A stretch of DNA of 64,000 nt from an uncultured bacterium. Its GTDB lineage: Bacteria; Auribacterota; Erginobacteria; Erginobacterales; Erginobacteraceae. The stretch spans positions 14,351 through 78,350 of the forward strand of contig CAZPMN010000004.1 in assembly GCA_964587835.1 (NCBI GenBank). The letters are read 5' to 3'. This document shows positions 3,268 to 63,210 of this stretch, piece by piece. The first letter of the stretch is position 1, and the number at the start of each line of letters is the position of its first letter. The position numbers were made by a program, and so were the translations under genes. The notes beneath the pieces are model-generated. The model was given only the letters and a program-made list of their open reading frames with translations, was not told the origin of the DNA and did no database searches.

Positions 3268-3945
3268 ATGCGGAAATCCCTGCAATGCTGTCAAAAGTTC
3301 TTCTCCCCCCCGGTGATTTCGGGCATTGTTTTCCTGGCGATTCTCCCTTCTCTCCGGGCCGGTCCCCCGGTCGATATCAATACCGCCGGGGTCGAGGAAC
3401 TCCAGACTCTTCCCGGGATCGGCCCCGCGCTGGCGAAGAGGATCATCATCGACCGCGAAGCTAACGGCCCCTTCCAAGAGCCTGAAAAAATAACCCGGGT
3501 CTTCGGGATCGGGGACGCCCGCTACCGGGAGATTCAGGACCTGATCACAGCCGGCCGGGTCGCGGTGCCGGTCAACCGGGCGCCCCCGCCCGACCGGGTC
3601 AACCTCAACACCGCCACCCAGGAGCAGCTGGAGACCTTGCCCGGGATCGGCCCCGTCCTTGCCCGCCGGATTATCGACTACCGGGAAAAAGAAGGCGGTT
3701 TCAAGCGGACGGAAGACCTGACGGCGGTCCGCGGGATCGGGCCCAAGACCTTTGCGAGCCTGAAAAACCTGGTTACCGTTTACGGCCAGGCCCTGGAACA
3801 AGTTGTCGCTCCCGGCGGCCCCGGGCCCCGGATCTCCGTTTCCCAGGATCTGAAGTGCTGGCGCTGCGGCCATACCTTCCAGGTGGAGGGATCCGTCAGG
3901 TCCGGGACCTGCCCCTCCTGCGGCGCCCCCTGGCGGGCCCGCTAA
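3268..3945 (+). CDS. comEA: ComEA-like DNA-binding protein with two helix-hairpin-helix modules and a C-terminal CxxC...CxxC zinc ribbon
   Basis: Two copies of the LxxLPGIGPxLAxRII HhH motif ([24 protein letters not shown]; [28 protein letters not shown]). C-terminal CWRCGH...CPSCG. RBS GGAGAG lies 13 nt upstream of ATG 3268 (the track alternative GTG is at 3259). Confidence 0.7.
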
Positions 3946-10543: not shown

Positions 10544-11308
10544 ATGATCACCATCGCACATCGAGGGTTTTCCGCGGCCGCACCTGAAAATACGCTGGCG
10601 GCCTTCAGCAGGGCGATCCAGGCGGGATCGGATCTGGTCGAGATGGATCTTCGGCTCAGCCGGGACGCTCAGGTGATAGTTTTTCACGATCGCGAGCTTG
10701 ACCGGACCACCGATGGCGAAGGGCCGGCGGGGGAGAGGACCCTGGCCCAATTGAAGGAACTGGACGCCGGTTCCTGGTTCTCGCCGGAATTTGCCGGCGA
10801 GAAGATCCCTACCCTGGATGAGGTGCTGGAACTCTTCGCGCCGACCCGGACTGGGCTTTACCTGGAGCTGAAGATCGACCGGGGAGAAGAAAACGTTCGG
10901 GAGGAGCTGGTACCCCGGGTTCTGAATGTCCTGGCCGGCAGAGCGGTTCCGGAGCGGCTGTTTCTGGCTTCCTTTGATCATCCCGCTCTCCGCCTGGTTC
11001 GTTCCCTGGGCCCGGGACTCCCGACCGGCTTGATCTTCGGGGAGAAAGAGATCTGGGATCTTCTTCCCACGGGGGAACTGACCGGGCTGGATGTGCTCTC
11101 CGCCCGCTGGAATATTGTTACCGCCGCCCGGGTTGAAAAGGCCCGGAGGGCGGGGAAGGAGGTCTGGGCCTGGACCGTCAACCGGCGGGCGGAACTGGAT
11201 TCAGTCCGGGCCGCCGGGGTAGATGGGGTGGCCGGCAACGACCCGGACTGGCTCCGGAGGAATATTATCCTGCCAGATGAAAATTCACCACCGAGGAAAG
11301 GCAAATGA
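10544..11308 (+). CDS. ugpQ: Glycerophosphodiester phosphodiesterase (GDPD family)
   Basis: MITIAHRGFSAAAPENTLAAFSRAIQAGSDLVEMDLRLSRDAQVIVFHDRELDRTTDG is the classic GDPD N-terminal HR(G)...E.D...D...V.HD signature. An in-frame ATG sits after the terminator; the track ORF 10322.. extends upstream through the terminator. Confidence 0.8.
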   Translation: MITIAHRGFSAAAPENTLAAFSRAIQAGSDLVEMDLRLSRDAQVIVFHDRELDRTTDGEGPAGERTLAQLKELDAGSWFSPEFAGEKIPTLDEVLELFAPTRTGLYLELKIDRGEENVREELVPRVLNVLAGRAVPERLFLASFDHPALRLVRSLGPGLPTGLIFGEKEIWDLLPTGELTGLDVLSARWNIVTAARVEKARRAGKEVWAWTVNRRAELDSVRAAGVDGVAGNDPDWLRRNIILPDENSPPRKGK

Positions 11309-12660
11309 GAAAGATATTATTCCTGCTGCTGATCGGGGGGTTGATCTTCACGTCCTCCGCCGCTTCCCAGACCCGCTGGATGCGGCTCCATCCCGACGTT
11401 TCCTGGCGGTACCTGGAGCGCTGGGAGAAGGAGCACCAGTGGCTGACGCCGGCCCGGGCCGGCCGGCTCCACTTCCAAAAGCACGAAGTGGGGAGGGCGC
11501 GCCAATTGCTGGAGGAGGCGGTGAAAGAGGGAGCCGGGGACGGGCGACTGCTCTATGAACTTGGTTACAGCTGCCGTCTCCAGGGTGATGATGAGGCTGC
11601 CCTCGGCTATCTTCGGCAGGCTGCCCAAGCGCTGGCCCGGGATAATCCCGGCCACCTCTATCATTTCAACGCCCTCTATCTCTCCGGGATAATCCTCGAA
11701 GAGAGCGGGGATGAGGAAGAGGCCCTGGCCCTTTATTCCTCCGCGCTCGAACTCCGGCCGGAGATATCCGCTCTCCGTCACCGCCGGGCCTATCTCCTGG
11801 CCCGAAAGGGGGAATCGTCCGCTGCCCGGAAGGAGATCGGGCGGCTCCTGGAACAGGAGCCGGAATCGGGAACCGCCCTCTACCTGGCCGGTCTTCTGGC
11901 CCTGGAAGACGAAGACTACTCGACCGCCGAGACGTATCTGGAGAGGGCCCTTCAGGCCGGGTTTGATCCAGCCCCGACCCACTACGCCCTGGGGCGGCTG
12001 GCTGCTCTCCGGGATGATCCTGCCCGGGCCTTCCGGCAATACGAGAGCGCGCTGGCGGCCGATCCGCACCATCGGGATGCGCTGATAGCAGTGGCCAATC
12101 TCTCTTACCGGGAAGACGACCTGGAACGGGCGAGGGAGTATTTTGGGCTTCTCTCCGAACTGGAGCCGGACCGGGCCCGCTGGCACTACAATCTGGGCGT
12201 GATCTACCGGGATCTCGGGTTGAGCGATCTCTCCCGGCGTTCCTTGGACGAGGCCCGGCGCCTCGATCCGGATATTCTCTCCTCATCCCGGAGGGCGGGG
12301 GAGGATTCCGAACTGCTGGCCCGGGCGGGGGAGAGGCTGGAAGCGGGGGAGTACCGGGAGGCGGCCCAACTTTACCGACAGTCCCTGGCCGAGGACCCAT
12401 TCTTTATCCCCGCCCATTTCAACCTGGCGGTCGCCTACCGCCGGACCCGGCAGGGGAGGAGATCCCTCCGGCAGTACGAGCGGCTGCTGAGGATCGAACC
12501 CGATTACAGCCCGGCTCGTCTCAATGCCGGGATTATCGCGGTGGAACTGAAGGATCGTCCGTCTGGCGCCCTCCACCTCAGGAGATACCTAAACCTGGAA
12601 CCGGATTCTCCCCAGGCCGATCTCGCCCGGCGCTATCTCCGCGATATGCGCGGCTGGTAA
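11305..12660 (+). CDS. Secreted TPR repeat protein
   Basis: Signal peptide MRKILFLLLIGGLIFTSSAASQ; multiple TPR units (ALYSSALELRPE..., AFRQYESALAADPHH..., ARLNAGIIAVE...). Confidence 0.7.
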   Translation: MRKILFLLLIGGLIFTSSAASQTRWMRLHPDVSWRYLERWEKEHQWLTPARAGRLHFQKHEVGRARQLLEEAVKEGAGDGRLLYELGYSCRLQGDDEAALGYLRQAAQALARDNPGHLYHFNALYLSGIILEESGDEEEALALYSSALELRPEISALRHRRAYLLARKGESSAARKEIGRLLEQEPESGTALYLAGLLALEDEDYSTAETYLERALQAGFDPAPTHYALGRLAALRDDPARAFRQYESALAADPHHRDALIAVANLSYREDDLERAREYFGLLSELEPDRARWHYNLGVIYRDLGLSDLSRRSLDEARRLDPDILSSSRRAGEDSELLARAGERLEAGEYREAAQLYRQSLAEDPFFIPAHFNLAVAYRRTRQGRRSLRQYERLLRIEPDYSPARLNAGIIAVELKDRPSGALHLRRYLNLEPDSPQADLARRYLRDMRGW

Positions 12661-21953: not shown

Positions 21954-22036
21954 GCGTCATTGCGAGGAGCGCAGCGACGAAGCAATCTCAACTTGCTGAC
22001 CAGGAAGAGATTGCTTCGCTGCGCTCGCAATGACGT
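21954..22036. repeat. Head-to-head pair of the GAGATTGCTTCG...CGCAATGAC palindromic repeat element forming an ~83-nt imperfect hairpin between convergent genes; likely terminator of the minus-strand kinase/HTH operon
   Basis: gcgtcattgcgaggagcgcagcgacgaagcaatctc - 17 nt - gagattgcttcgctgcgctcgcaatgacgtc. An A-run precedes it on the plus strand, which is a U-run after the hairpin on the minus transcript. Confidence 0.6.
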
Positions 22037-29161: not shown

Positions 29162-30475
29162 TCAACCTTTCATTCCGGAGCGGGTGATCCCCTCGACAAA
29201 ATGCTTCTGGGCCAGGAAGAAGATGACCAGGAGGGGAAGGACCGAGAAGGTGGAGGCGGCCATCAGAAGTTCCCAGTCGGTGCCGCTTTCCTGGTTGAAG
29301 ACCGCCAACCCGACCTGGAGCGGCCGCATCTCCGGAGTATTGGTCATCACCAGCGGCCAGAGGAGTTGGTTCCAGATCATGATAAAGGTAAAAAGCGATA
29401 CGGTCAGGATCACCGGGGCGGAGACCGGGAGGACGATCTGGAAGAGAGTCCGCAGCCGTCCGCAGCCGTCGATGCTGGCGGCGTCGAAGAGGTCCTGGGG
29501 TAGGGTCTCGAAATGCTGCCGCATAAAGTAGATGCCGAAGACCGCCCCCAGAAACGGGACCACCAGGGCGGCATAGGTGTTGACCCAGCCCAGCCAGGAG
29601 ATGATGGCGTAGTTGGGGATCAGGATTACCTGGCTGGGGATCATCATCGTGGCCAGGAGAAGAAGGAAGAGCGGTTCCTTGAGGGGAAACTTCATCCGGG
29701 CGAAGGCGTAGGCGGCCAGGGCTGAGGTGATCACCTGCCCGATGGTGACCAGAACGGAGACCAGCACGCTGTTGAAGAAGTAGCGGGCGAAGGGAGCCGC
29801 CTGCCAGGCTTTCTTGAAGTTCTCCCAGAGAAACCGTCTCCGGATGATCCGATCCCGGGAAACCGCGGTTACCTCTCCCCTCCTCTCTCCGGCCAGGATG
29901 ACCACCGGGACGGGTCGGGAGGGTTCAACCGCCTGCCCGGCGATCCGCCCGAGGTTCTCCCGGAGCCGCTCAAGTTCGTCCAGGAACCGCGCGCGGGCCG
30001 GGGGGGAAAGAATTTCCGGGATCCCGGAATCCCGCAGCCGGCGGTCGGCTTCATCGCTCAGGGCGGATATCCTCTTCTCGACCGCTTCGGGGGGACGGTA
30101 CCGGTTGAAGAACTTCTCGATCTCCAGCCGGAGGAAGCTGAAGGTATTGGTCAGGGTCGCCCGCAGCTCCGTCCGTCCCCTGATCTCACTGCCGATCGCC
30201 CCCGCGATTTCCCCTTCCCGAGCGGAGATCTCCCCCTCCAGGTCGAGGGAGAGGGCAAACTCCACCTGCTCCGGTTTTCCCTCCACTTCGATGTACTTCT
30301 TGGCTTCCGGGATCAGGGATACTCTCGCCGCCAGGACTTCCAGCGAGGACTTGAAAGAGGTGCTGATCATCCAGATAAAGGGGAAGACCATCGTCAAACT
30401 TCCCGCCAACAGGACCAGGTAGATCAGGAGCCGGGGGGAGATGATCTTGCCTTGGCTGGTTAATTGCTTCATCAC
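29162..30475 (-). CDS. Carbohydrate ABC transporter permease (MalG-like) with a large periplasmic insertion
   Basis: EAA loop DAASIDGCGRLRTLFQIVLPVSAPVI; multiple TMs. About 150-aa insert after TM1. Confidence 0.8.
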   Translation of the reverse strand: MMKQLTSQGKIISPRLLIYLVLLAGSLTMVFPFIWMISTSFKSSLEVLAARVSLIPEAKKYIEVEGKPEQVEFALSLDLEGEISAREGEIAGAIGSEIRGRTELRATLTNTFSFLRLEIEKFFNRYRPPEAVEKRISALSDEADRRLRDSGIPEILSPPARARFLDELERLRENLGRIAGQAVEPSRPVPVVILAGERRGEVTAVSRDRIIRRRFLWENFKKAWQAAPFARYFFNSVLVSVLVTIGQVITSALAAYAFARMKFPLKEPLFLLLLATMMIPSQVILIPNYAIISWLGWVNTYAALVVPFLGAVFGIYFMRQHFETLPQDLFDAASIDGCGRLRTLFQIVLPVSAPVILTVSLFTFIMIWNQLLWPLVMTNTPEMRPLQVGLAVFNQESGTDWELLMAASTFSVLPLLVIFFLAQKHFVEGITRSGMKG

Positions 30476-30490: not shown

Positions 30491-31381
30491 CTAACTCTCG
30501 TAGGCGGCCTTTTTGCCGAGGACCTTCTTCTGTAGCACTGTCAGAAAGAGGATAATGAAGAAGAGCACGTAGGCGATCGCGCAGGCGTAGCCGAAGAGGT
30601 TGTTATTGAAGGCGGTCCGATAGAGGTAGAAAACCCCTGTGGTGGTGGATTGGAGCGGCCCGCCGCCGGGGGTGAGGATAAAGACCGGAACGAACATCTG
30701 GAAGGAAAAGATGGTGGAGATGGTGAGGAGGAAGAGCGTGGTCGGAAAGAGGAGCGGCCAGGTGATGAAACGGAACTTGGCCAGGGCGTTGGCCCCGTCG
30801 ATATCGGCGGCTTCGTAGTAGGAGGAGTTGATGTCCAGCAGCCGGGTCAGGAAGATCAGGATATTGAAGCCCATTGTCTTCCAGACAATGAAGAGGATGA
30901 TCGCGACCCGGGCCCAGGTGGGGTCCTGGAGCCACCGGATCTCACCGGGATCGGCCCCGAAGAGGGATCCGACGGCGTTGATGACCAGGTTGAGCAGTCC
31001 CCGGGGCTGAAGGATCCAGCGCCAGACAATGGCGATGGCGGTCATCGAGGCTATGTAGGGTATGAAGAAGGCGGTCCGAAAGAAACCGAGGCCGCGAATC
31101 TTCTTGCTCAACAGGACCGCCACCAGAAGGGAAAGGCCGAGTCCGAAGACGATTGATCCCAGGGAGAAGATGGCGGTATTGAGGAGGGAGAGGAGGAATT
31201 CCGAATCCTGAATGAGGATCAGGTAGTTTCTCAGGCCGATAAACTCGGAGGGGGAGACCATATCCCAGCGGAAGAAGCTGAGATAGAGGGCGTAGAACAT
31301 CGGGAGAATGAGAAAGACCAGGATCACCACGAAGGCGGGGAGGATGTAGAGCAAAGGACTGAATTTCGCGAGTCTGCTCAT
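30491..31381 (-). CDS. Carbohydrate ABC transporter permease (MalF/UgpA-like)
   Basis: EAA loop EAADIDGANALAKFRFITWPLLFPT; six TMs. Confidence 0.8.
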   Translation of the reverse strand: MSRLAKFSPLLYILPAFVVILVFLILPMFYALYLSFFRWDMVSPSEFIGLRNYLILIQDSEFLLSLLNTAIFSLGSIVFGLGLSLLVAVLLSKKIRGLGFFRTAFFIPYIASMTAIAIVWRWILQPRGLLNLVINAVGSLFGADPGEIRWLQDPTWARVAIILFIVWKTMGFNILIFLTRLLDINSSYYEAADIDGANALAKFRFITWPLLFPTTLFLLTISTIFSFQMFVPVFILTPGGGPLQSTTTGVFYLYRTAFNNNLFGYACAIAYVLFFIILFLTVLQKKVLGKKAAYES

Positions 31382-31392
31382 GGTCAGCTCAC

Positions 31393-31420
31393 CGCTTACT
31401 GCTTACTGCTTACTGCTTAT
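31393..31420. repeat. Heptanucleotide tandem repeat (plus strand cgcttac tgcttac tgcttac tgcttat; minus strand aagcagt aagcagt aagcagt aagcggt) spanning the stop of gene 31410..33272; gives stops in all three frames on the coding strand
   Basis: Read directly: four 7-nt units. The TAA of the upstream gene lies inside a unit, and TAA/TGA recur in all three frames across the 29-nt spacer before the next start (31381). Confidence 0.6.
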
Positions 31421-33272
31421 CGTCCTCCCCCACCCTCGCCGCCCGTTCCCGATGATAGGCGGCCAATCCCACGTCACCCGCAGCCTCAAAATAGAAGGCG
31501 AGGTTCTTCCGGTCTCGAACCGAGTTCGGATTGAGTTCCACCGCCCGTTGGAGGTGGTGGTAAAGCTGCTGGTTCTCGCCCTCTTCCCGGCTAGGGTCCG
31601 CCAGCAAGGAATGGGCCCGCCAGGAAATGGGGTCAATGGCCAGCGCACTCTGTCCTGCTTCCCGGGCCCGTTGCCGCTCACCCTGTTCCAGGTACAGACT
31701 GCAGAGGCGCAGGTCGGGTTCGGGGCTGTACGGCTCCCTCTCTTTCGCCTTCCGGTAGTGTCGTTCCGCCGCCGCCGGATCTCCTTTGTCCGCGGCGATC
31801 GATCCCAGGACCAGTTCAGCCCCCGCGAGTTCGGGATGAAGTGTCAGCGCCTGTTCCGCCAGTTTCCGGGCCTGGGTTGCCTTCCCCTCCATATTCGCCT
31901 TTTGTGCCCGAAAGAGCAAGCGATTTGTCTCGGAGCGCATCTCCACCCGGTGCCGGGAACGGGTGGCGAGGACCAGGAAGGGAAGCAGGATGGCCGCCGC
32001 GGCTACCCGCTTCATCCTCCGTTCCCTCAGGGAGCGCCAGAGAAAGATGATCGTTCCGGCCGCCGGGACGGCCAGGGCCGGAACCATCAGCAGCCGGCTT
32101 CTCCCCCGGAAGAAGAAAATGATTATCGCTGCCGCCTGGGCTGCCAGGTAGAAGAAGAACGGCTGCCCGGCCGGGCGTTGCCGGCAGAGAAGGAAGATGC
32201 CCAGCAGGGCCGGGGGGAGAATTATTCCGAAGCAGAGCAGCGGCAGACCGAAGAGCCTCCAGGCTTTCCCGGCCTCGGCCTCGGTGCCGAGATCGAAATA
32301 TTCCCGGGGGCTGAAGATCAGTCGGAACTTCCTGCCCAAAAGTCGCAGCTCCTCCCCGGGATGGTTGGTCAGGTAAAGCCATCCTTCCCGGAACCAGAAA
32401 CGGGAAACCCCGGCGGCATCCAGTTCCCGGCCGGTCCGTCTCTCGGCTTCCCGGCGGCTGTCGGTGATGATCCCGGTGGCTGAGGGGGTGAGGAAGAGCG
32501 GCGTTCGGAAACCACCGTTGGCCTCCGGATTGTTCCCGATATAGAAATTGATCCCCGAATGGGCGGTCAGGAGGACCGGCCCCCTGGACCTCCGACTGTT
32601 TCGGGCCGCGTACGGCAGCAGAACCGCCAGGATGCCGATGACGGTCAAAACCTCTCTCCAGAACAGTGCTGGTCCCCTCCCCCGCTCCCGGGGGATCCGG
32701 AAGAGGATCAGGAGAAGGGCGAAGAGCAAATTGCCGGGGGCGAAGATCGACGCCAGTCCGAGGAGAAATCCGCCGACCAACCAGGACAGGAGGTGTCCGG
32801 ACTTGGGCAGGTATGTCCACCAGGCCAGGGCGAGCAGGGAGAAGAAGAGGGCCGGGCCGGTCGGAAGCAGCCGGTTCTCAAAAAAGATGATCGGACCGTA
32901 GAAGACCACGATCAGCCCAGCCAGCAACCCTCCCCCCGGCCCCAATAATTTCCGGCCGATCAGGAAGGTCAACCCGCAGCCCAGTCCGCCCAGAAGGGCT
33001 TGAAAGGCCCAGACCAGTTTAGGACGTCTCCCCGCCGTTCGGTAGATGGTCGTCAGCAGGCTCGGATAACCGGGAAGGGCGTAAATTTCTCCCGGAAAGA
33101 ACGACCGCCCGGCCGCGTGAGCCGCGGCCAGGCGGTCGTAGTTGTACTCGTCCATCCCGGCGGGGAAGTCGTACCGGTTGGGATCAAACGCCCGCTCCGC
33201 CTGGAAAGCCCCCCGGACTGCTAACCCCAGCAGGGACACCGCCAGGAAGATCAGGATGTTCCTCTTCTCCAA
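31410..33272 (-). CDS. GT-C fold membrane glycosyltransferase (GT39/GT83, PMT/ArnT-like, with DE motif) fused to C-terminal TPR repeats
   Basis: N-terminal polytopic region with MDEYNYDRL (DE motif in loop 1) and many TMs. C-terminal TPR units (ARKLAEQALTLHPELAGAELVLGSIAADKGDPAAAERHYRKAKEREPYSPEPDLRL...). Confidence 0.7.
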   Translation of the reverse strand: MEKRNILIFLAVSLLGLAVRGAFQAERAFDPNRYDFPAGMDEYNYDRLAAAHAAGRSFFPGEIYALPGYPSLLTTIYRTAGRRPKLVWAFQALLGGLGCGLTFLIGRKLLGPGGGLLAGLIVVFYGPIIFFENRLLPTGPALFFSLLALAWWTYLPKSGHLLSWLVGGFLLGLASIFAPGNLLFALLLILFRIPRERGRGPALFWREVLTVIGILAVLLPYAARNSRRSRGPVLLTAHSGINFYIGNNPEANGGFRTPLFLTPSATGIITDSRREAERRTGRELDAAGVSRFWFREGWLYLTNHPGEELRLLGRKFRLIFSPREYFDLGTEAEAGKAWRLFGLPLLCFGIILPPALLGIFLLCRQRPAGQPFFFYLAAQAAAIIIFFFRGRSRLLMVPALAVPAAGTIIFLWRSLRERRMKRVAAAAILLPFLVLATRSRHRVEMRSETNRLLFRAQKANMEGKATQARKLAEQALTLHPELAGAELVLGSIAADKGDPAAAERHYRKAKEREPYSPEPDLRLCSLYLEQGERQRAREAGQSALAIDPISWRAHSLLADPSREEGENQQLYHHLQRAVELNPNSVRDRKNLAFYFEAAGDVGLAAYHRERAARVGEDDKQ

Positions 33273-33608
33273 TTACGCTTCCGGAGTCACTTCTCCGCCG
33301 GAGGTCTTACCCGGGGCGAGATTCTCCCGGATTGTATTCAGGTTCTCGGCGATCCGAAAGATGACGATGATCAGTTCCAGGTAGATCCTGGCCAGCAGCA
33401 TCATAACCAGGTAGATCACCGGGGAGAGGATTAAGAAGATCAATCCCATCCACCAGGATTCGCTGGCAAACCCGGTGATAATCATCACAATAACCCAGAT
33501 CCCCACTCCGACCATGGCCAGACCGAGCAGGAACTTGATCACCTTGGTGGTGACAAAATCCGAAAATGAGAAATCAAATATTGTCCTCAGAAAGCCTTTT
33601 TCCTGCAT
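33273..33608 (-). CDS. DUF4282-like small membrane protein
   Basis: LRTIFDFSFSDFVTTKVIKFLLGLAMVGVGIWVIVMI...ARIYLELIIVIFRIAENL. Confidence 0.55.
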   Translation of the reverse strand: MQEKGFLRTIFDFSFSDFVTTKVIKFLLGLAMVGVGIWVIVMIITGFASESWWMGLIFLILSPVIYLVMMLLARIYLELIIVIFRIAENLNTIRENLAPGKTSGGEVTPEA

Positions 33609-33652: not shown

Positions 33653-34063
33653 TTAGGGGTTGACGTTGGTCAGGGACATAGTATCAAAATCTATCCGCCG
33701 GTAGTAGCAATTTCTTGCTTCTCCGAGGCGGTTTTTCGTATGGCAGATCCCTCCCCGGCGGGGCCGGACCCGGTAGAGGAGCGAGTTCTGCTCGCAGTTA
33801 ACGTAGGCCTCCACCAGCTCGAAGGTCTCCCCCGAGGTCTTGCCCTTCTCCCAGAGTTTGTTGCGGGAGGTGGACCAGAGAACCAGGGAGCGGGAAGCGA
33901 ATGACTTTCTCATCGCCTCCTCGTTGGTGTAGGCGACCAGGATCACCTCCCCGGTCCCGATATCCTGGACCGCCACCGGAATTACGTCCGGGCAATTCTC
34001 CGATACCTTCCGGATCTTGCCGAAATCCAGTTTCAGTTCCTTCCCTTCCTCCAGTTCCTTCAC
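33653..34063 (-). CDS. hisI: Phosphoribosyl-AMP cyclohydrolase
   Basis: LVLWSTSRNKLWEKGKTSGETFELVEAYVNCEQNSLLYRV...ICHTKNRL...CYY signature. GTG start with AAAGGAG RBS. Confidence 0.8.
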   Translation of the reverse strand: MKELEEGKELKLDFGKIRKVSENCPDVIPVAVQDIGTGEVILVAYTNEEAMRKSFASRSLVLWSTSRNKLWEKGKTSGETFELVEAYVNCEQNSLLYRVRPRRGGICHTKNRLGEARNCYYRRIDFDTMSLTNVNP

Positions 34064-34080
34064 AATTTCTCCTTTGCCGT

Positions 34081-34140
34081 CACTGCTTACCGCTTACTGC
34101 TCACTGCTTCCCGATTACTGATTGCCGATTACTGATTACT
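34081..34140. repeat. Degenerate heptad tandem repeats filling the hisA-hisI spacer (minus strand: TAATAAG TAATCAG TAATCGG CAATCAG TAATCGG GAAGCAG TGAGCAG TAAGCGG TAAGCAG TGA...)
   Basis: Read directly at 34081-34140: about 8 units of 7 nt. The hisA stop lies inside the array, and there are multiple TAA/TGA in all frames on the coding (minus) strand. Confidence 0.6.
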
Positions 34141-34867
34141 TATTACCCGCCGCCGCCCGGATCGCTTCCGACAAATCCAGCGTCCCCGCGTAGATCGCCT
34201 TCCCGGTGATAACCCCGGCCAGCCCTTTTCTTTCCAGTTTCTTCAGGTTGCGGATGTCTTCCAGGTTGGAGACCCCCCCGGCGGCGATAACCTGCAATCC
34301 GGTCTGTTCCAGAAAATTCTCCAGCGCGGTTAGGTTCGGCCCCTCCAGTGTCCCGTCGGCGGTGGTGTCGGTGTGGATGACCAGGGTGAAGCCGATCTTC
34401 TTCAGGTCTTGGCCCAGATCCTCCGCCTTCAGTTCGGTCTTCTCCTCCCAGCCCCGGACCATCACTCTCCCGTCCCGGGCGTCGATCGAGGGAATGACCC
34501 GGTCCCGGAATTCCCGGTGGATCTCCACCAGGAAATCGGGGTCGTTAACCGCCCTGCTGCCCACGATCACCCGGTTCACTCCCCCGGCCAGGAGCGTCTC
34601 GATCGTCTCCGGGTTCCTCACTCCACCCCCCAGTTCTACCGGGATGGAGACAGCGGAGATAATCTCCCTCACGGCCTTGAGGTTGCGAGGCTCCCCGGCA
34701 AAGGCCCCGTCGAGATCGACCACGTGGAGGAACTCCGCCCCTTCCCCCGCCCATCTCCGGGCCATCGCGGCCGGGTCCTCGGAGTAGACCGTCTCCCGAT
34801 CCGCCTTTCCCTGGTAAAGCCGGACGCAGCGCCCGGATTTAATATCGATTGCCGGCAGTATGATCAT
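34136..34867 (-). CDS. hisA: ProFAR isomerase (1-(5-phosphoribosyl)-5-[(5-phosphoribosylamino)methylideneamino]imidazole-4-carboxamide isomerase)
   Basis: MIILPAIDIKSGRCVRLYQG...VDLDGA...VELGGGVR...IAAGGVSNLEDI are HisA/HisF TIM-barrel signatures. Confidence 0.85.
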   Translation of the reverse strand: MIILPAIDIKSGRCVRLYQGKADRETVYSEDPAAMARRWAGEGAEFLHVVDLDGAFAGEPRNLKAVREIISAVSIPVELGGGVRNPETIETLLAGGVNRVIVGSRAVNDPDFLVEIHREFRDRVIPSIDARDGRVMVRGWEEKTELKAEDLGQDLKKIGFTLVIHTDTTADGTLEGPNLTALENFLEQTGLQVIAAGGVSNLEDIRNLKKLERKGLAGVITGKAIYAGTLDLSEAIRAAAGNK

Positions 34868-34874
34868 AGTTCTG

Positions 34875-34902
34875 TTTACTGCTCACTGCTTACCGCTCAC
34901 TG
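34875..34902. repeat. Four heptad units (minus strand CAGTGAG CGGTAAG CAGTGAG CAGTAAA) exactly filling the hisB-hisA spacer
   Basis: Plus strand tttactg ctcactg cttaccg ctcactg at 34875-34902, between the hisB stop (34913-34915) and the hisA ATG (34865-34867). Confidence 0.6.
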
Positions 34903-34912
34903 TTCCCCGACC

Positions 34913-35503
34913 CTACATCTTCCCCTTGGTCGAAGGCACCCCCTTGACCCGGGGATCAATCTCCACCGCCTCCCGCAGGGCCCGGCCCAGCCCCTTGAAG
35001 ACCGCTTCGATGGTGTGATGGACGTCCTCCCCGTAAAGGACGTTGATATGGAGGGCGAAGCGGCCCTCGGCGGTGAGGGCGCGAAAGAATTCCTTGAAGA
35101 GTCCGACGTTGAAATCCCCGATCTTGATCCGGCGGATTTTTGGGTTGTAGACCAGGAAACTCCGTCCCCCGATATCCACCGCCACCCCCGCTAGGGCCTC
35201 GTCCATCGGCAGGGAGGCCGACCCGTACCTGGCGATTCCCTGCTTCTCTCCCAGGGCCTGCAAGAGAGCCCGGCCCAGGCAGATCCCCAGGTCCTCGACC
35301 GTGTGATGATAATCCACCTCGAGGTCGCCCCGCGCCTTGACCTTGAGGTCAAAAAGGCCGTGGCGGCCGAAGAGTTCCAGCATATGATCGAAGAAAGGGA
35401 TCCCCGTATCGATCGCCGTCTTCCCCTCGCCGTCCAGGTTCAGCTGAATGGATATATCAGTCTCTTTGGTCTTTCTCTGCACCCGGGATAATCTTTTCTT
35501 CAT
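34913..35503 (-). CDS. hisB: Imidazoleglycerol-phosphate dehydratase
   Basis: RKTKETDISIQLNLDG...IPFFDHMLELFGRHG...DYHHTVEDLGICLG are IGPD metal-binding motifs. ATG 35503 has an AAGGA RBS; the track GTG is at 35509. Confidence 0.85.
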   Translation of the reverse strand: MKKRLSRVQRKTKETDISIQLNLDGEGKTAIDTGIPFFDHMLELFGRHGLFDLKVKARGDLEVDYHHTVEDLGICLGRALLQALGEKQGIARYGSASLPMDEALAGVAVDIGGRSFLVYNPKIRRIKIGDFNVGLFKEFFRALTAEGRFALHINVLYGEDVHHTIEAVFKGLGRALREAVEIDPRVKGVPSTKGKM

Positions 35504-35518
35504 AATCACCGTTCCTTT

Positions 35519-35546
35519 TAACCCGATTTATTCATAAATCGGGTTA
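35519..35546. promoter_or_regulatory. Perfect 13-bp inverted repeat (TAACCCGATTTAT tc ATAAATCGGGTTA) immediately upstream of the hisB RBS, in the 168-nt hisC-hisB spacer
   Basis: Read at 35519-35546. Not followed by a U-tract on either strand, so an operator or RNA hairpin is more likely than a terminator. Confidence 0.35.
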
Positions 35547-35593
35547 GTAAGCTCCCACTGGTCTTGCCGAACCACTGCCGGAATACCGGCACT

Positions 35594-35642
35594 TGGAAAT
35601 TGGATATTCCTTGTTGGATATTGGATATTCAGATATTCAATA
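35594..35642. repeat. TTGGATA-type heptad direct repeats (about 6 units) in the hisC-hisB spacer
   Basis: ttggaaa ttggata ttccttg ttggata ttggata ttcagata ttcaata read at 35594-35642. Confidence 0.45.
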
Positions 35643-35671
35643 ATCCTCCACCGGGGTGCCACATCTGAAAA

Positions 35672-36724
35672 TCAACCCTGGTCCGATAAAATCTCGCGGA
35701 TCGCCCCGGTCAGCAGGTCCATCTGCTCCGGGGTCCCGATACTGATCCGGATAAACTCTTGCAAGCGCGGAGTATCGAACCAGCGGACCAGGATCTTCCG
35801 TTCGAAGAGGGCCTCGTACAACTCCCCCGCTCTCCCCTCCGGCGGCCGTCCGAGGAGGAAGTTCGCCCCGGAGGGAATTACCCTGAATCCCAGATCAACC
35901 AGGGTATTCGCCAGGCGCTCCCTCTCCGCCACTATCCGAGCCGTGGTCTCCTGGAAATACTCCCGGTCGGCCAGGGCGGCGGCGGCGGCGGCGGCCGAGA
36001 CGGCGTTGAGGTTGTAGGAGTCCTTGACCTTCATCATCCCGGAGACGACCTCCTCCGAGGCGAAGGCGTAACCGACCCGCAATCCCGCCAGGGAGTAAGA
36101 CTTGGAGCAGGTCCGGGTGACCAGAAGGTTGGGGAAGTCGAGCAGCAGGGGGAGGGAGCTCTCCTCGGCGAAATCGACGTAGGCCTCGTCCACCAGCACC
36201 ATCCCTTCGGTCTTCCGGAGAAGACGCTCGATCGCCGCGATCGGGTAGATGGTGCCGGTAGGGGAGTTGGGCGAGGCGATCAGCTTGATCGCGGCCTTCG
36301 CCCCGAAAAACTCCTCGGGGAGTCCGAAGTCCTCATCAAGTTCATAAGCCGCCGGCTTTGCTCCCTGGATCCGAGCCAGGACCCCGAAGAGGCTGTAGGA
36401 GGGGGTCGGGAAGGCGACCCGGTCTCCTTCCCCGGCAAAGCAGCGCAGGGCCATCGCCAGCAGTTCGTCGGAACCGTTGCCGGCGATAATCCGTTCCACC
36501 GGGAGGCCGTAAACCTCGGCGATCACCTCTCTCAGCCGGACGGAGAGGGGATCGGGATAAAGGCGCAGGCTGTCCTCCCCGGTCTTCCGGATCGCCGCGG
36601 CCGCTCCGGGGGCGGGGGGATAGGGATTCTCGTTGGTGTTGAGCTTGACAAATCCCCCGCCCTTCGGCTGGAACCCGGGCTGGTATGGTTCCAGCCCGTC
36701 TATGTTGTTCCTGAACCAGTTCAT
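35672..36724 (-). CDS. hisC: Histidinol-phosphate aminotransferase
   Basis: Class II aminotransferase: LNTNENPYPP N-terminus; Lys region TCSKSYSLAGLRVGY. Confidence 0.85.
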   Translation of the reverse strand: MNWFRNNIDGLEPYQPGFQPKGGGFVKLNTNENPYPPAPGAAAAIRKTGEDSLRLYPDPLSVRLREVIAEVYGLPVERIIAGNGSDELLAMALRCFAGEGDRVAFPTPSYSLFGVLARIQGAKPAAYELDEDFGLPEEFFGAKAAIKLIASPNSPTGTIYPIAAIERLLRKTEGMVLVDEAYVDFAEESSLPLLLDFPNLLVTRTCSKSYSLAGLRVGYAFASEEVVSGMMKVKDSYNLNAVSAAAAAAALADREYFQETTARIVAERERLANTLVDLGFRVIPSGANFLLGRPPEGRAGELYEALFERKILVRWFDTPRLQEFIRISIGTPEQMDLLTGAIREILSDQG

Positions 36725-36772
36725 AAGTTTTCGCGCAGATACGGCAGGCCAGGCATTCCTGTCTGACCTAGT

Positions 36773-38047
36773 TTAATCTGTCATTTTTACGCTTCGAGTA
36801 TTAAGTCGGACCCGGACGGAGAGGAGGTGGTTATCGAGCCCTTCCAACTCCGCCAGCGTTTCCAGAGCCGAAAAATCATTCTTCAGCGCCCGCCTCGTGT
36901 AACGGAGCAGGCTGCTCTTCTTGAGAAAGTCATTGACCGTCAGGGGCGAGGAGAAACGAGCCGCTCCCCCGGTGGGGAGGACGTGACTGGGGCCAGCGAC
37001 ATAGTCTCCCGCCGCCACCGGGCTCAGCTCCCCGATGAAGATCGCCCCGGCGTTCCTGATCCGAGCCAGCGCGGCTTCCGGGGCGGACGTCATAATCTCC
37101 AGGTGCTCGGGGGCGATCCGGTTGACCAATTCAATACCCTCTTTCAGGCTCCGGACCCGGACCAGAAAAATTCCTTCGCGTTTCCCGCCGCCCCCCGCTC
37201 TTGCGACCTCTTCCGCCACCGCCGCCGCCAGACGCTTGGAAGTGGTGATCAGGATCGCCGCTCCGCCCGGCCCGTGTTCGGCCTGGGCCAGGAGATCGGC
37301 GGCGATATGGTCCGGCGCGGCCTTCCCGTCGGCCAGGATCGCCACCTCGCTCGGCCCGGCCAGGCTGTCGATCCCCACCACTCCGAAGACCTCCTTCTTG
37401 GCCAGGGTGACGTAGATATTCCCCGGTCCAGCGATCAGATCAACTCTTGGGATCGTCCGGGTACCGAAGGCCAGGGCGGCCACCGCCTGAGCCCCCCCGA
37501 TCCTATAAATCTCCCTGATCCCCAAAAAATCAGCGGTGGCCAACAGGTAGGGGTTAACGGTCCCGGACTTTCCCGGCGGGGTAACGATCACGATCCTCCG
37601 AACCCCGGCCAGCCGGGCCGGGACCACGGCCATCAAAACCGTCGAGACCAGCGGCGCCCTCCCCCCGGGGACGTAAATCCCCGCCGACTCCACCGGGGTG
37701 ACCCGTTCCCCCCACTCCAGTCCGTCCCCCCTTCCCCGCCGCCAGGACTTCTCCCGAATTGGGCGGTAAAACCTGGAGATATTCCTCTCCGCCCGCCGCA
37801 GAGCAGCCCGCAGCTTCGGGGTCAGGGACTTTCGGGCTTTTTGCATCTCGGCCGGGGAGACCGCAAAGGACTTGAGCCTCACCCCGTCAAAGGCCAGGGT
37901 GTACTCCCGCAGGGCCGCGTCACCCCGCTCCTGCACCTCCCCGACGATCTTTCGCACCGCCGCAACCTTCTCCGGCGGAAAGGCCGCCCCCTCCATCCAC
38001 CGGAGTAGCTTCTCCCCGGCTGACTTGTTGTACTCAATTACCTTCAT
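36773..38047 (-). CDS. hisD: Histidinol dehydrogenase
   Basis: HisD signatures (GIYVPGGRAPLVSTVLM, AGPSEVAILAD, QAEHGPGG, HLEI). Confidence 0.85.
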   Translation of the reverse strand: MKVIEYNKSAGEKLLRWMEGAAFPPEKVAAVRKIVGEVQERGDAALREYTLAFDGVRLKSFAVSPAEMQKARKSLTPKLRAALRRAERNISRFYRPIREKSWRRGRGDGLEWGERVTPVESAGIYVPGGRAPLVSTVLMAVVPARLAGVRRIVIVTPPGKSGTVNPYLLATADFLGIREIYRIGGAQAVAALAFGTRTIPRVDLIAGPGNIYVTLAKKEVFGVVGIDSLAGPSEVAILADGKAAPDHIAADLLAQAEHGPGGAAILITTSKRLAAAVAEEVARAGGGGKREGIFLVRVRSLKEGIELVNRIAPEHLEIMTSAPEAALARIRNAGAIFIGELSPVAAGDYVAGPSHVLPTGGAARFSSPLTVNDFLKKSSLLRYTRRALKNDFSALETLAELEGLDNHLLSVRVRLNTRSVKMTD

Positions 38048-51573: not shown

Positions 51574-51619
51574 GAGATTGCTTCGGCCCCTCCGCTTCGC
51601 TTCGGGCCCTCGCAATGAC
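51574..51619. repeat. Copy B of the GAGATTGCTTCG...CTCGCAATGAC palindromic repeat element (46 nt), 26 nt upstream of the start of gene 50358..51548
   Basis: gagattgcttcggcccctccgcttcgcttcgggccctcgcaatgac read directly. Confidence 0.6.
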
Positions 51620-54723: not shown

Positions 54724-55446
54724 TTAATTCCCATCCTCCTTGGTTGGATGATAGAGGACGAAACGGTAAAACAAGGATTTAGGCAGAAAAATATTCCCCA
54801 ACCCATCAATGAGCAGACCGACCGGAATGGTTATCAGCCAGATCGGGAGATATCGCAAGGGAGTCTTCAGGACCAGGGGACTGAAATATAGCAACCCCAG
54901 ATGAAGGAGGAATCTTCCCGGCCCTTCCCGCCAGTTTCCAATTCCCAGTTGGCTGGCCGAGGTCCGCTTTCTTCGGAAGGTGAAAAAAAACTCCAGATGC
55001 CCCAGAAACCCCTTTCTCCTCTTTTCCGCGAGGTCAAATCCGTGCTGCCTCATCAGTTCTTCTAACTCGTTCTCTCCGAAGACTCGGACGTGGTGAATCT
55101 CCAAGGGATAGGAGGGGCGGAGGCGGGCCAGCCATTCTTCCGACTTCCAATAGGGAACCTCGGCGATCACTTCTCCCCCGGGTTTGAGACAACGGCGGAT
55201 CTCTCCCAGGGCAGCATCTAGGTCGTCAATATGCTCGAGCACGTCTCGGGCTTCTATCGCGTCAAAAACCCCGTCTCTGAACCCTAACCGCTCACCGCTC
55301 ATAGCCAGGAAAATCAATTTGGGATAGCGCCGGGCGGCGATGTCGAGATCGAGGAGGGAGATATCGACCCCGAATACAATTTTTCTCCGGGAAAGAAGCG
55401 AGGTGTTGTAGCCCTGCCCGCAGCCCAGTTCGAGAACCTTTTTCAT
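54724..55446 (-). CDS. Class I SAM-dependent methyltransferase with C-terminal TM segment
   Basis: VLELGCGQGYNTSLL (motif I), VFDAIEARDVLEHI, CLKPGGEV. Confidence 0.7.
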   Translation of the reverse strand: MKKVLELGCGQGYNTSLLSRRKIVFGVDISLLDLDIAARRYPKLIFLAMSGERLGFRDGVFDAIEARDVLEHIDDLDAALGEIRRCLKPGGEVIAEVPYWKSEEWLARLRPSYPLEIHHVRVFGENELEELMRQHGFDLAEKRRKGFLGHLEFFFTFRRKRTSASQLGIGNWREGPGRFLLHLGLLYFSPLVLKTPLRYLPIWLITIPVGLLIDGLGNIFLPKSLFYRFVLYHPTKEDGN

Positions 55447-55489
55447 CCTCGCAATGACAAGGCGCTGTATTTTGAGTTCCGGGTAAAAT

Positions 55490-56568: not shown

Positions 56569-56615
56569 GAGATTGCTTCGTCGGCCAGAAAGCTTTCGGG
56601 CCTCCTCGCAATGAC
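56569..56615. repeat. Copy C of the GAGATTGCTTCG...CTCGCAATGAC palindromic repeat element in the divergent promoter region between the GT2 gene (minus) and the rSAM gene (plus)
   Basis: gagattgcttcgtcggccagaaagctttcgggcctcctcgcaatgac read directly. A partial terminus-like gattcgcaatgatacc recurs at ~56663. Confidence 0.6.
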
Positions 56616-61704: not shown

Positions 61705-63210
61705 CTATTGAAAGTCGCGGAGGTGGCCCCAGACCTTCTTCCCGGCCCGGAGAAAGTATCGGATATCCGACCAGTTTCGGATACTGATGACTTTCCGGGC
61801 CAGGAAGAGGGGATTATAAGCAATCGAGTACATTCCTCGAACCAGTTTCATCAAATCCTTCTCCGGGAAGGGAGTCTTCATCACCGGCCGTTTCATATCA
61901 TAGTTGGGCCAGTCTTCGGTTAGCAGCCAGCCATTCTCCTTACACTCTTGATAGAGGGGGGTTCCAGGATACGGAACCACCACCGTTGCCTGCATCGTAT
62001 AGGCCCAGCCCTTCTTCAACAGGAAGCGACCCAGTTCAAAGGTGTTCCGGGCCTGTTCGTAACTTTCCCAGGGGTAACCGAACATAATCGTGATGTGGGG
62101 ATAGAGGCCGGCCCGGCGGGCATTCCGGCAGGAATCGATGATCGTCTCCACCTTCAGGTTCTTGTTCAGTCGGTCCAGGGTTTCCTGGTTGCCGCTCTCC
62201 AGTCCGAAGAGGAGGAAGCGGAAGCCCGCTTCCTTCATCAGCCGGTAATCATCCGCCGAGGCGGCCCCGAAGCGGAAGTTGCAGTCGAACCCCACCTTCC
62301 GGTTAAAGCCGCGATCCACCGCCCCCCGGCAGAAATCGCGCAGCCATTCGCCCCGGGGGAAGGTCCCGGTATCGTCCATTATCTCCCGGACCGGGTACCG
62401 GCCGGTGATTTGCCCGATCTCGTCGAGAACATTTCCCACCGTCCGGACCCGGAACTTCGGATAGAGTCCGGTCCAACTGCAGAAGGTGCACTTTCCCCAC
62501 CAGCAGTCCCGCCCGCTCATAATGTAGGTCCCCGGAGTCCGTCGATAGTTGCCGTTCCGGTAGGCGTAGAGTTCCCACTTGGTCAGTTCCCGGTCGATGA
62601 AGGGGACTCCATCGAGATCGTGGTTGAGTTGGAAGGGGCCGGTGTTCTTGATCTCTCCGCCGTCGCGGTACCAGATTCCCGCAGGGAGGGAATGGGGTGT
62701 TGGGGAATGGAGAATGGATTTTGGGGAATGGGGAATGGGGAATGGGGAATGGTCCAGAACCCGGCAGAGATCGCGGAGGAGGAAGTCGTAGTCGCCGCCG
62801 GTGAGGACGTAATCGACCGGCGAGTTGGCCAGGGACTCTTCGGGGAGAGCGGTGACGTGGTCACCACAAAGAACAGTAAGCGGTAAGCGGTGAGCGGTAA
62901 GCGGCAACTGCTTGATCTCGCTGATGAGCTTCCAGTGCTCCCGGATCACCGGGGTCTTGGTCTCAAAGACGATCAGATCGGGTTTCTCCCGCTCCAGCAT
63001 CCGGAAGTATGCCTCCCGCTCGATCCCTTCGGCGGCGCAGTCGTTCCAGATCACCCGATAGCCGGCATCGCGGAGCATCGTGGCGGCGGAGGCCGGGACC
63101 ACCGGATAGATGAAGGTCGGCTCGCTGAAGTACTGGAACTGCCGGTTCTGCCCCAGTGTGGGAAACCCCTTGGCTCTATCGAGGGGCGGGTATGAGAAGA
63201 TAATCTTCAC
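61705..63210 (-). CDS. B12-binding domain radical SAM protein carrying two in-frame insertions encoded by heptad tandem repeats
   Basis: MKIIFSYPP... B12-binding-like N-domain; SGRDCWWGKCTFCSW Cys motif; radical SAM core (FGLESGNQETL). Linker residues HSPFPIPHSPKSILHSPTPHS are encoded by ggggaat repeats, and LPLTAHRLPLTVL by cggtaag repeats. Confidence 0.8.
   Translation of the reverse strand: MKIIFSYPPLDRAKGFPTLGQNRQFQYFSEPTFIYPVVPASAATMLRDAGYRVIWNDCAAEGIEREAYFRMLEREKPDLIVFETKTPVIREHWKLISEIKQLPLTAHRLPLTVLCGDHVTALPEESLANSPVDYVLTGGDYDFLLRDLCRVLDHSPFPIPHSPKSILHSPTPHSLPAGIWYRDGGEIKNTGPFQLNHDLDGVPFIDRELTKWELYAYRNGNYRRTPGTYIMSGRDCWWGKCTFCSWTGLYPKFRVRTVGNVLDEIGQITGRYPVREIMDDTGTFPRGEWLRDFCRGAVDRGFNRKVGFDCNFRFGAASADDYRLMKEAGFRFLLFGLESGNQETLDRLNKNLKVETIIDSCRNARRAGLYPHITIMFGYPWESYEQARNTFELGRFLLKKGWAYTMQATVVVPYPGTPLYQECKENGWLLTEDWPNYDMKRPVMKTPFPEKDLMKLVRGMYSIAYNPLFLARKVISIRNWSDIRYFLRAGKKVWGHLRDFQ
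62685..62752. repeat. GGGGAAT-type heptad tandem array (4 perfect units at 62723-62750 plus degenerate flanking units) inside the B12-rSAM coding region
   Basis: ggagggaatggggtgttggggaatggagaatggattttggggaatggggaatggggaatggggaatgg read directly. Confidence 0.6.
62874..62908. repeat. CAGTAAG/CGGTAAG/CGGTGAG heptad array inside the B12-rSAM coding region, same family as the his-operon spacers but stop-bearing orientation on the non-coding (plus) strand
   Basis: cagtaag cggtaag cggtgag cggtaag cggcaac read at 62874-62908. Confidence 0.6.

Follow-up and report, generated by a model that had tools for sequence, protein, structure and literature searches.

The stretch of DNA analysed here, hereafter the window, is 64 kb long with a G+C content of ~60%, and its minus strand carries a histidine (his) gene string, hisD-hisC-hisB-hisA-hisI, followed by genes for a DUF4282 protein, a TPR protein and two ABC permeases (Table 1). 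The nearest named homologs of the window proteins belong to Candidatus Omnitrophota (Ca. Euphemobacter frigidus, Ca. Tritonobacter lacicola and a "PVC group bacterium"), and on the basis of these homologs the host lineage is judged to be an Omnitrophota metagenome-assembled genome (MAG). Genes were named from NCBIfam matches and the Pfam labels of syntenic contigs; for hisB, hisA and hisI, NCBIfam agrees with the identities given in an earlier note on this DNA. In three spacers of the string (hisB-hisA, hisA-hisI and TPR-ABC permease), the minus strand, which is the coding strand, carries tandem heptanucleotides of the CAGTAAG/CGGTAAG/CAGTGAG/TAATCAG family. These arrays are one of several heptamer families scattered in this Omnitrophota genome.

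Tandem Repeats Finder (TRF) reported six period-7 arrays in the window. A search with the two-unit motif CRGTRAGCRGTRAG (CRGTRAG CRGTRAG, at most 2 mismatches) gave 23 matches against 3.03 expected (sd 1.74), a count reached by none of 100 dinucleotide shuffles, and regions of period-7 self-similarity numbered 3-4 in the window and 0-0.05 in shuffles. The CRGTRAG family is dispersed over four sites of the window (31.4, 34.1, 34.9 and 62.9 kb), beside which lie two other period-7 sites; the recurrence at ~31.4 kb and, inverted, in a coding region at 62874-62908 had been noticed earlier and was found again. The family thus forms tandem heptanucleotides above chance, which are both tandem and dispersed within the window, as in the class of long simple sequence repeats discussed below. 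Within the units, positions C1, G3 and A6 are retained and the other positions drift. A weak match at 55284-55304, which comprises 2-3 units inside a called open reading frame (ORF), was treated as chance.

Array 1 (TAATAAG TAATCAG TAATCGG CAATCAG TAATCGG GAAGCAG TGAGCAG TAAGCGG TAAGCAG) forms the final three codons of hisA with their TAA stop (34136-34146) and extends over most of the hisA-hisI spacer (72 nt, 34064-34135). After these units, the coding strand continues with TGACGGC AAAGGAGAAATT and then the GTG of hisI, so that the ribosome-binding site (RBS) and start codon of hisI directly follow the array, as the earlier note had described; the GTG start and GGAG-type RBS are kept in the relatives L002, L130 and L133. 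The hisB-hisA spacer reads GGT CGGGGAA CAGTGAG CGGTAAG CAGTGAG CAGTAAA CAGAACT, followed by the ATG of hisA, and TRF placed a period-7 repeat of 3.6 copies at 34878-34902 together with a period-14 repeat at 34872-34902. The TPR-permease junction reads CGATAAG CAGTAAG CAGTAAG CAGTAAG CGGTGAG CTGACC and then ATG (TRF 31394-31419, 3.7 copies, 100% match). The start codons of hisA and the permease lie 0-7 nt past their arrays without a canonical Shine-Dalgarno (SD) motif, and no such motif was found in the window sequence upstream of the hisA ATG.

The earlier note had described the hisB-hisA and hisA-hisI spacers as filled exactly by 4 and ~8 tandem units. Their tandem nature is borne out by TRF, with period 7 and matches far above shuffles, and the four good units between hisB and hisA stand, joined by two degenerate ones (CGGGGAA and CAGAACT), whereas the hisA-hisI spacer holds ~9. 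Both spacers are mostly rather than exactly occupied: 10 degenerate or non-repeat bases open the hisB-hisA spacer and a 17-nt RBS segment closes the hisA-hisI spacer. Stops are present in all three sense frames of each spacer (1/2/1 in hisB-hisA, 2/2/2 in hisA-hisI and 1/1/2 in TPR-permease), as had been claimed, and the antisense frames hold none (0/0/0) in two of the three, including hisB-hisA. Most units contain TAA or TGA, but not every one does, as TCGGCAA and TCGGGAA after hisA carry no stop triplet. Likewise, the stop codon of the upstream gene is itself a repeat unit in hisA and in the TPR gene (TAA, 31410-31412, in array 3) but not in hisB, whose TAG lies out of register, at a distance of 16 nt from where the array has its first TGA.

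Table 1. Repeat arrays and genes of the window
Feature	Coordinates	Strand	Basis and remarks
Array 1	34082..34146	-	TRF period 7, 9.3 copies, 75% matches; ~9 units
Array 2	34868..34909	-	Within the 45-nt hisB-hisA spacer; 4-unit core 34875-34902
Array 3	31388..31422	-	5 units; TPR gene end and 28-nt spacer before the ABC permease ATG at 31381
Repeat-free tail of hisA-hisI spacer	34064..34081	-	Holds GGAG, the hisI RBS, 5 nt from the GTG start codon (34063)
Inverted CRGTRAG array	62874..62908	+	Antisense to B12-radical-SAM gene (61705-63210, -); TRF 62876-62904, 4.1 copies
GGGAATG/GGGGAAT array	62688..62752	+	Inside the same radical-SAM gene; TRF 9.1 copies; absent from the earlier note
AATATCC-type element	35593..35639	-	In the 162-nt hisC-hisB spacer; TRF 35593-35629; absent from the earlier note
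hisD-hisC-hisB-hisA-hisI string	33653..38047	-	NCBIfam; same gene order in relatives; hosts arrays 1 and 2 and the AATATCC element
hisD	36773-38047	-	NCBIfam
hisC	35672-36724	-	NCBIfam
hisB	34913-35509	-	NCBIfam
hisA	34136-34867	-	NCBIfam
hisI	33653-34063	-	NCBIfam
Downstream genes of his string	30491..33608	-	NCBIfam and Pfam labels on syntenic contigs
DUF4282	33273-33608	-	Part of his string
TPR protein	31410-33272	-	Part of his string
ABC permease 1	30491-31381	-	Array 3 lies between the TPR gene and permease 1
ABC permease 2	29162-30475	-	Part of his string

The RNA of the three spacers is unstructured. Folding of the spacers with their flanks gave energies at or above the shuffle mean (z = +0.23, +1.05 and +1.44), promoter-like and terminator-like sites occurred at shuffle level with none inside the three spacers, and no inverted partner of the three arrays was found in 29-39 kb. 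A structured RNA or terminator was rejected on these grounds. A known RNA element was rejected as well, since an Rfam 15 scan of 29-39 kb at E <= 1 returned no relevant family and only two sub-threshold, unrelated matches to miRNA models at 29.0 kb. The purine content of the spacers on the mRNA strand is 64-71%. HutP binds UAG triplets at 7-nt spacing. Histidine-specific regulation by an attenuator or a HutP/TRAP-like protein was set aside, as the same arrays adjoin the TPR and ABC-transporter genes and their triplet is UAA/UGA instead of UAG, although no search for a binder was made.

An assembly artefact was also considered, as short-read assemblers may collapse, expand or mis-join at low-complexity repeats. 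In an independent assembly (Logan SRR8186049, locus L001), the contig ends at its position 4157, which corresponds to window ~31388, inside the TPR-permease array. An end within a heptamer array implies that such repeats break k-mer or de Bruijn assembly graphs, and unit counts from short-read MAGs should therefore be taken with caution. The arrays themselves are almost certainly no artefact: the two assemblies give identical spacers, the arrays are 28-65 nt long and thus below typical read length, and the gene order over them is kept in at least six related lineages from different studies, with arrays at the same junctions.

Syntenic his loci were gathered by exact-protein look-ups and a metagenome scan, yielding lineages with 66-84% HisA identity, and this comparison with orthologous his operons, which the earlier note had proposed, revealed that both the unit number and the repeat type vary between relatives. 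At the same sites, relatives whose HisA is 80-84% identical have 2-9 units, a different type of repeat or no repeat, and those with 66-72% identity have no arrays and short or unrelated spacers. Between hisB and hisA, where the window has 4-5 units, L130 has 8-9 (CGGTGAT CGGCAAT CGGTTAT CAGTAAT CGGTAAG CAGTTAG CAGTGAG CGGTCAG ...), L131/L132 have 5-6 and L133/L134 have 2-3; instead of heptamers, L002 has REP-like (repetitive extragenic palindrome) hairpins, L125 two octamer arrays inverted relative to each other (GGAGTAGT...) and L003 an unrelated palindrome. Between hisA and hisI, the ~9 units of the window correspond to 6 each in L130 and L131, to 3 in L002 and 2 in L125, both followed by (GATAGC)n hexamers, and to none in L133 or L003. 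In L003, a toxin-antitoxin pair is inserted instead (10830-11371; also in L004 and L005), which consists of an Unstab_antitox-family antitoxin and a 108-aa partner, between hisA and hisI within the operon. Spacer length ranges from 25 to 154 nt among the relatives and, judging from these sequences, is unconstrained. The CAGTAAG arrays are direct-only in every lineage of the sub-clade examined.

The coding end of hisA records the encroachment of the array. HisA orthologs share a conserved end, ...AIRAAG, beyond which the proteins of the window and of L002 each have three further residues (GNK and GKQ, respectively), encoded by repeat units (GNK*, GKQ*) of which the next one supplies the stop. 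In sequence terms, the arrays are fast-evolving and dispensable and encroach on the coding end. The hisA gene also lacks an SD motif in L003 and L125, relatives without an array between hisB and hisA. As for variation within one population, four metagenomes contained a related strain (L125-L128) that is identical over 6 kb except for 1 single-nucleotide polymorphism, a strain with 2-unit arrays only. A search for further samples of the species of the window yielded none; its HisA occurs in one sample only and the metagenome scan gave nothing closer than 80% identity. The his spacers of the relatives further hold hexamer (GATAGC, GATACC and GATCCC) and octamer (GGAGTAGT) arrays, often as inverted pairs, with short-period sites in L125 at 3568-3686, 4284-4408, 5132-5265 and 11819-11970 and in L002 at 2640-2760. 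In this clade, the spacers of the his operon seem to take in short-period repeats in general.

Outside this clade, a scan for three perfect CRGTRAG units was run on one genome per species (185,579 species, 596 Gb). It returned at least 119 three-unit stretches against ~17 expected by chance from an arithmetic estimate for 596 Gb. The 80 loci listed belong to Pyrinomonadaceae and other Acidobacteriota, Gemmatimonadota, Chloroflexota, Cyanobacteria, Beta-, Gamma-, Alpha- and Deltaproteobacteria, Verrucomicrobiota, Planctomycetota and Nitrospirae, with no Omnitrophota record among those 80. Genes around the 119 stretches were called with a simple codon-usage caller, for which Pfam bore out 8 of 8 spot checks. 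Arrays inside ORFs (17 of 142) are all antisense, and at gene 3′ ends the stops are borne by the sense strand in 57 cases and by the antisense strand in 9 (119 array-bearing loci from many phyla). Usually the first unit provides the stop codon, the array-stop distances being -6, +1 and +8 nt. Of the 125 intergenic arrays, 41 have an inverted partner within 300 nt and form hairpins in gaps where the genes converge or run in the same direction, such as the cbbQ-cbbO gap of L077. The layout of such inverted arrays is a stop codon, (CAGTGAG)n, a loop, (CTCACTG)n and then the next start or the convergent stop, giving a long hairpin; it was seen in L021, L027, L028, L061, L064, L073, L074, L075 and L077, which come from Acidobacteriota, Gemmatimonadota, Betaproteobacteria, Desulfobacca, Phyllobacterium and others. 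In nearly every case the arm with the stops precedes the other; arrays at gene 5′ ends are antisense in 12 cases and sense in 1.

Period 7 dominates the surroundings of these arrays. In the 845 kb of the 119 loci, TRF found 252 repeats of period 7 and 87 of period 14, whereas repeats of period 6 and period 8 numbered 4 and 30, and ~94 other heptamer families share the same sequence. Those other families show no orientation bias (sense stops at 3′ ends in 16 cases versus 12), and the idea that heptamer arrays between genes would as a rule place sense stops next to gene ends was rejected accordingly. In viral contigs, tandem triplets of CRGTRAG formed 102 stretches, compared with at least 120 for the reversed unit and 58 for a base-swapped unit. 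With controls of the same composition thus as common and no special enrichment, a special conserved sequence that has spread across phyla was rejected. A few predicted viral or proviral contigs, IMGVR_UViG_3300039307_000285 (L166, L178 and L209) and IMGVR_UViG_2883497546_000001 (L148, L187 and L211) among them, contain a dozen or more separate CRGTRAG arrays on both strands within 44-102 kb. Certain genomes are prone to 7-nt microsatellites in general, and the CRGTRAG family is one common example.

Other period-7 elements of the window place the spacer arrays in context. The AATATCC element (GAATATCCAATATCCAACAAGGAATATCCA) contains no stop triplets and, in contrast to arrays 1-3, has a sequence that is kept in five lineages (alignment A2) amid flanking spacer that is not conserved; counterparts occur at 1040-1075 of L002 and in L003, L130 and L131. 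Because of this conservation it is probably under constraint, perhaps as a leader element, promoter or operator, and not a free microsatellite. The B12-radical-SAM gene holds two further arrays, both in frame. The inverted CRGTRAG array reads CCGCTTA CCGCTCA CCGCTTA CCGCTTA in the sense of the gene and encodes LPLTAHRLPLT in variable loop 1. The GGGAATG array comprises 9 units, equal to 63 nt or 21 codons, reads CATTCCC in the gene sense and encodes HSPFPIPHSP... in variable loop 2. In L002, the GGGAATG family (GGGGAAT, 5 units) fills the spacer between two permease genes. Neither the AATATCC nor the GGGAATG family has stops in either orientation.

Alignment of 28 radical-SAM orthologs (A1) revealed that exactly these two loops are hypervariable across Omnitrophota, with loop peptides typical of translated heptamers (LPLTAHR, STVNRQP, PITDHRS and HSPFPIP). 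In-frame heptamer arrays as the source of the loops were checked on DNA in the window and in L129 (8281-8315 and 8448-8476), and the peptides suggest that the loops of other Omnitrophota orthologs also derive from heptamer arrays. In loop 1, L129 has (CCGTCAA) x4 where the window has four (CCGCTTA)-type units of equal length and frame, a difference that suggests homogenisation of units in place. A test for 7-residue protein periodicity among 120 radical-SAM orthologs was passed by 3 proteins, the test being insensitive to 4-unit arrays. The plus strand at 62722-62752, the template strand of the radical-SAM gene, reads TGGGGAATGGGGAATGGGGAATGGGGAATGG, a textbook G-quadruplex motif with four tracts of four G and 3-nt loops. 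Four or more GGGG tracts occur only in this GGGGAAT array, which is a putative G-quadruplex former.

Heptanucleotides are the most abundant class of long simple sequence repeats (LSSRs) in most prokaryotic genomes surveyed, for which polymerase slippage has been proposed (Mrazek 2007, as reported in PMC4679880). The arrays described here share with the LSSRs of Mrazek, Guo and Shah (2007; 5-11-nt units, as presented in PMC4679880) tandem heptamers, dispersal, a mostly intergenic position, a sporadic phylogeny and an excess of period 7. That survey predates Omnitrophota genomes, and as far as it is covered in PMC4679880, the CAGTAAG/CAGTGAG family apparently was not described in it. A literature search found no account of such repeats in Omnitrophota. 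The arrays are real but ordinary in kind, a new lineage and a new unit family of the known heptanucleotide class.

Several described repeats resemble them in part. In cyanobacteria, heptamers of the short tandemly repeated repetitive (STRR) type lie between hupS and hupL, and the STRR sequences share with the present arrays 7-bp units, several families per genome and a position in intercistronic operon spacers, and they sometimes form hairpins (PMC2670836). The present case differs in its Omnitrophota host of ~60% G+C, in its unit sequences and in its direct-only arrays. The STRR families of (heterocystous) cyanobacteria are defined by units such as CCCCAGT, TTGGTCA and CAACAGT, none of which is among the units here (CAGTAAG, CGGTAAG, CAGTGAG and TAATCAG); STRR1 (CCCCAGT) and STRR3 (CAACAGT) nevertheless share a CAGT core with the AAGCAGT/AATCAGT units. 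Heptamer tracts near start codons in Nostoc have tentatively been linked to expression. TAACTGA repeats, present in 2-6 copies directly 5′ of RBS-poor start codons in marine Beggiatoaceae, some Cyanobacteria and Bacteroidetes, were suggested, without a test, to act in translational regulation (MacGregor 2015, PMC4679880). These are likewise stop-bearing heptamers next to RBS-poor starts, sometimes inside ORFs, with no gene theme and in distant phyla (PMC4679880). Their unit is different, as neither TAACTGA nor a rotation of it occurs among the units here, the nearest being TAATCAG, and in the genome of a marine Beggiatoaceae member (BOGUAY) they are noted chiefly for a position 5′ of genes, whereas the arrays here and across phyla are anchored on the upstream stop. 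A position a few nt 5′ of a start without an RBS applies to hisA and the permease but not to hisI, which has its own GGAG.

Quadruplex-forming GGGAATC/GGGGAYT heptamer repeats of Xanthomonas and Nostoc lie between co-oriented ORFs, at most 50 bp from or overlapping the stop, on the coding strand (Rehm 2015, PMC4692102). They are often inverted, differ among Xanthomonas species in both length and sequence, and revealed no regulatory role; turnover of length and sequence at one intergenic site between close relatives is shared with the present arrays (PMC4692102). The GGGAATG array of the window is one base away from the Xanthomonas GGGAATC unit, but this G-rich family is intragenic here, and the CAGTAAG family has no G-tracts and cannot form a G-quadruplex. 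Contingency loci such as the heptamer tract 5′ of Haemophilus hmw1A also contain tandem heptamers whose copy number changes by slippage (PMC8262952). Those tracts lie in promoters or 5′ coding regions, switch expression and vary within populations, whereas the arrays here lie between a stop and the next start or keep the reading frame (the 63-nt, 21-codon array), have housekeeping neighbours, show no excess of promoter-like sites and did not vary within a population in the one relative sampled. Hairpins of the REP, REPIN, STRR or terminator kind are absent from the window arrays and present at many loci of other phyla.

Taken together, the spacer arrays are likely to be slippage-generated heptanucleotide simple sequence repeats that are passive in expression. 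They would arise and change length by slipped-strand mispairing at replication and would grow within intercistronic spacers up to a constraint, namely the upstream coding end on one side and the RBS or start codon on the other; the apparent filling of the spacers would follow from expansion to the nearest constraint. In the CAGTAAG orientation, any three units place a stop in each frame, and an overrun of the upstream stop would supply a new stop at a cost or gain of 2-3 residues. The opposite orientation, CTTACTG, has no stops and at a gene end would lengthen the protein through the whole array; it would be kept only away from gene ends or in frame in tolerant protein loops. The stop-bearing orientation at gene ends would thus reflect asymmetric tolerance, as in the overrun of HisA. 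In the mRNA, the arrays would serve as passive, purine-rich, unstructured linkers that expression of the his operon would not require. Slippage as the origin, near-neutrality and tolerance as the cause of orientation are what we infer. The implication of the earlier note, a purpose-built, frame-independent stop device peculiar to these junctions, is not supported, because relatives carry 2-9 units, other repeats or none at the same junctions with spacers of 25 to ~150 nt, because the AATATCC and GGGAATG families of the same window lack stops, because same-composition control heptamers are as common in tandem, and because the arrays match the published heptanucleotide class. What the stops in all frames account for best is the tolerance of this orientation next to a coding end; they do not testify to a designed stop device, and the stop-bearing orientation at gene 3′ ends is read as tolerance, a harmless overrun of the stop codon, rather than as function.

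Several points weigh against this neutral account. No length variation within a population was seen, in the one relative, with short arrays, that was sampled in four metagenomes. Two of the three downstream genes, hisA and the permease, have no normal SD motif right after the array, which, by analogy with the TAACTGA repeats, leaves room for a role in translation initiation. Five or six lineages of the sub-clade have arrays of the family at the same two or three junctions, a persistence that could mean selective retention instead of shared ancestry and slow decay. Finally, the orientation bias at 3′ ends (57:9, with 16 more arrays inside ORFs) belongs to the CRGTRAG family, whereas the tolerance argument predicts it for all stop-bearing heptamers and the other families in the same loci show none (16:12). 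The family-specific bias and the junction persistence are what the neutral account explains least well.

These points bear on readings that assign the arrays a function. The arrays might be translational insulators or re-initiation pads, which would stop ribosomes in any frame and offer an unstructured, purine-rich landing site (through S1 or scanning) to a gene without an SD motif. The stops in all three sense frames, the unstructured spacer RNA, the SD-less starts of hisA and the permease 0-7 nt after the array, the sense-oriented arrays of other phyla that begin at the stop codon and the comparable proposal for TAACTGA repeats (PMC4679880) would fit such a role. We regard it as unlikely, since hisA is also SD-less in L003 and L125, where no array precedes it, since array and spacer length differ 2- to 6-fold among close relatives with hairpin-forming repeats replacing the array in others, and since stop-free heptamers fill equivalent spacers, such as the permease-permease spacer of L002. 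It is very unlikely that the arrays are multimeric sites for an RNA- or single-stranded-DNA-binding protein with a 7-nt register that would define a post-transcriptional regulon. Such a protein would agree with the retention of C1, G3 and A6 amid drift and with the spread of the family over unrelated genes (his, TPR and ABC transporter), and S1, Csp or CsrA-like binders were proposed for TAACTGA arrays by MacGregor (PMC4679880). On the other hand, no candidate binder was identified, none having been searched for, and neither unit number nor presence is conserved; the family is tolerated inverted and translated inside the radical-SAM gene, arrays in other phyla mostly pair into hairpins, and the equal frequency of control heptamers in tandem argues against a special recognised sequence.

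The hairpins of other phyla raise the question of descent from inverted arrays. The window arrays could be single halves left by the decay of inverted arrays that once formed hairpins of a REP-, STRR- or terminator-like kind and that stabilised upstream mRNA or terminated transcription, as inverted partners accompany 41 of 125 intergenic arrays elsewhere (L028, L073, L074 and L077, for example), the his spacers of relatives hold inverted hexamer and octamer arrays, and STRR hairpins lie between hupS and hupL (PMC2670836). None of the three window arrays has an inverted partner, however, their folding is at or below shuffle level with no terminator-like site in the spacers, and the sub-clade arrays are direct-only in each lineage examined, which makes such decay highly improbable. 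Very doubtful, too, is the broader idea that CRGTRAG arrays are a widespread cis-element marking the ends of coding regions, with an all-frame stop and a purine-rich arm first, often followed by an inverted copy. If it were true, the arrays would be read in a 7-nt register by a conserved factor, either an RNA chaperone, a nuclease or the ribosome (or S1), which would uncouple or re-couple the translation of neighbouring cistrons or set mRNA 3′ ends, and the his spacers here would be the direct-repeat-only version.

Two further kinds of repeat were noticed in the window. A dispersed repeat with the core GTCATTGCGAGG has 5 copies against 0.32 expected (21956-22034, 51608-51619, 55447-55458 and 56604-56615), every copy being intergenic; at 21956-22034 it forms a palindrome (GTCATTGCGAGGAGCGCAGCGACGAAGCAATCTC...), and it looks like a small REP- or MITE-like (miniature inverted-repeat transposable element) element. 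Tandem repeats of 114-123 nt at 6481-7046, 9709-9994 and 10171-10376, within the ORFs 4967-7213 and 7323-10421, encode repeats of ~40 residues (GDYNGDGQADIAVFRSSSGLWAVRG...) with an FG-GAP/VCBS-like look and are ordinary coding repeats.

For annotation, the heptamer arrays explain the non-conserved C-terminal residues of HisA and of the TPR protein, the contig breaks in the independent assembly, and the odd radical-SAM loops, rich in proline, serine and histidine, that differ between orthologs. Heptanucleotide microsatellites have been known mainly from cyanobacteria, Xanthomonas, Burkholderia and Beggiatoaceae. Omnitrophota are now added, together with a stop-anchored, orientation-biased unit family across Acidobacteriota, Gemmatimonadota, Chloroflexota, Betaproteobacteria, Desulfobacca and others. 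Studies of why bacteria favour 7-nt units can take the biased orientation and the arrays translated in frame as handles.

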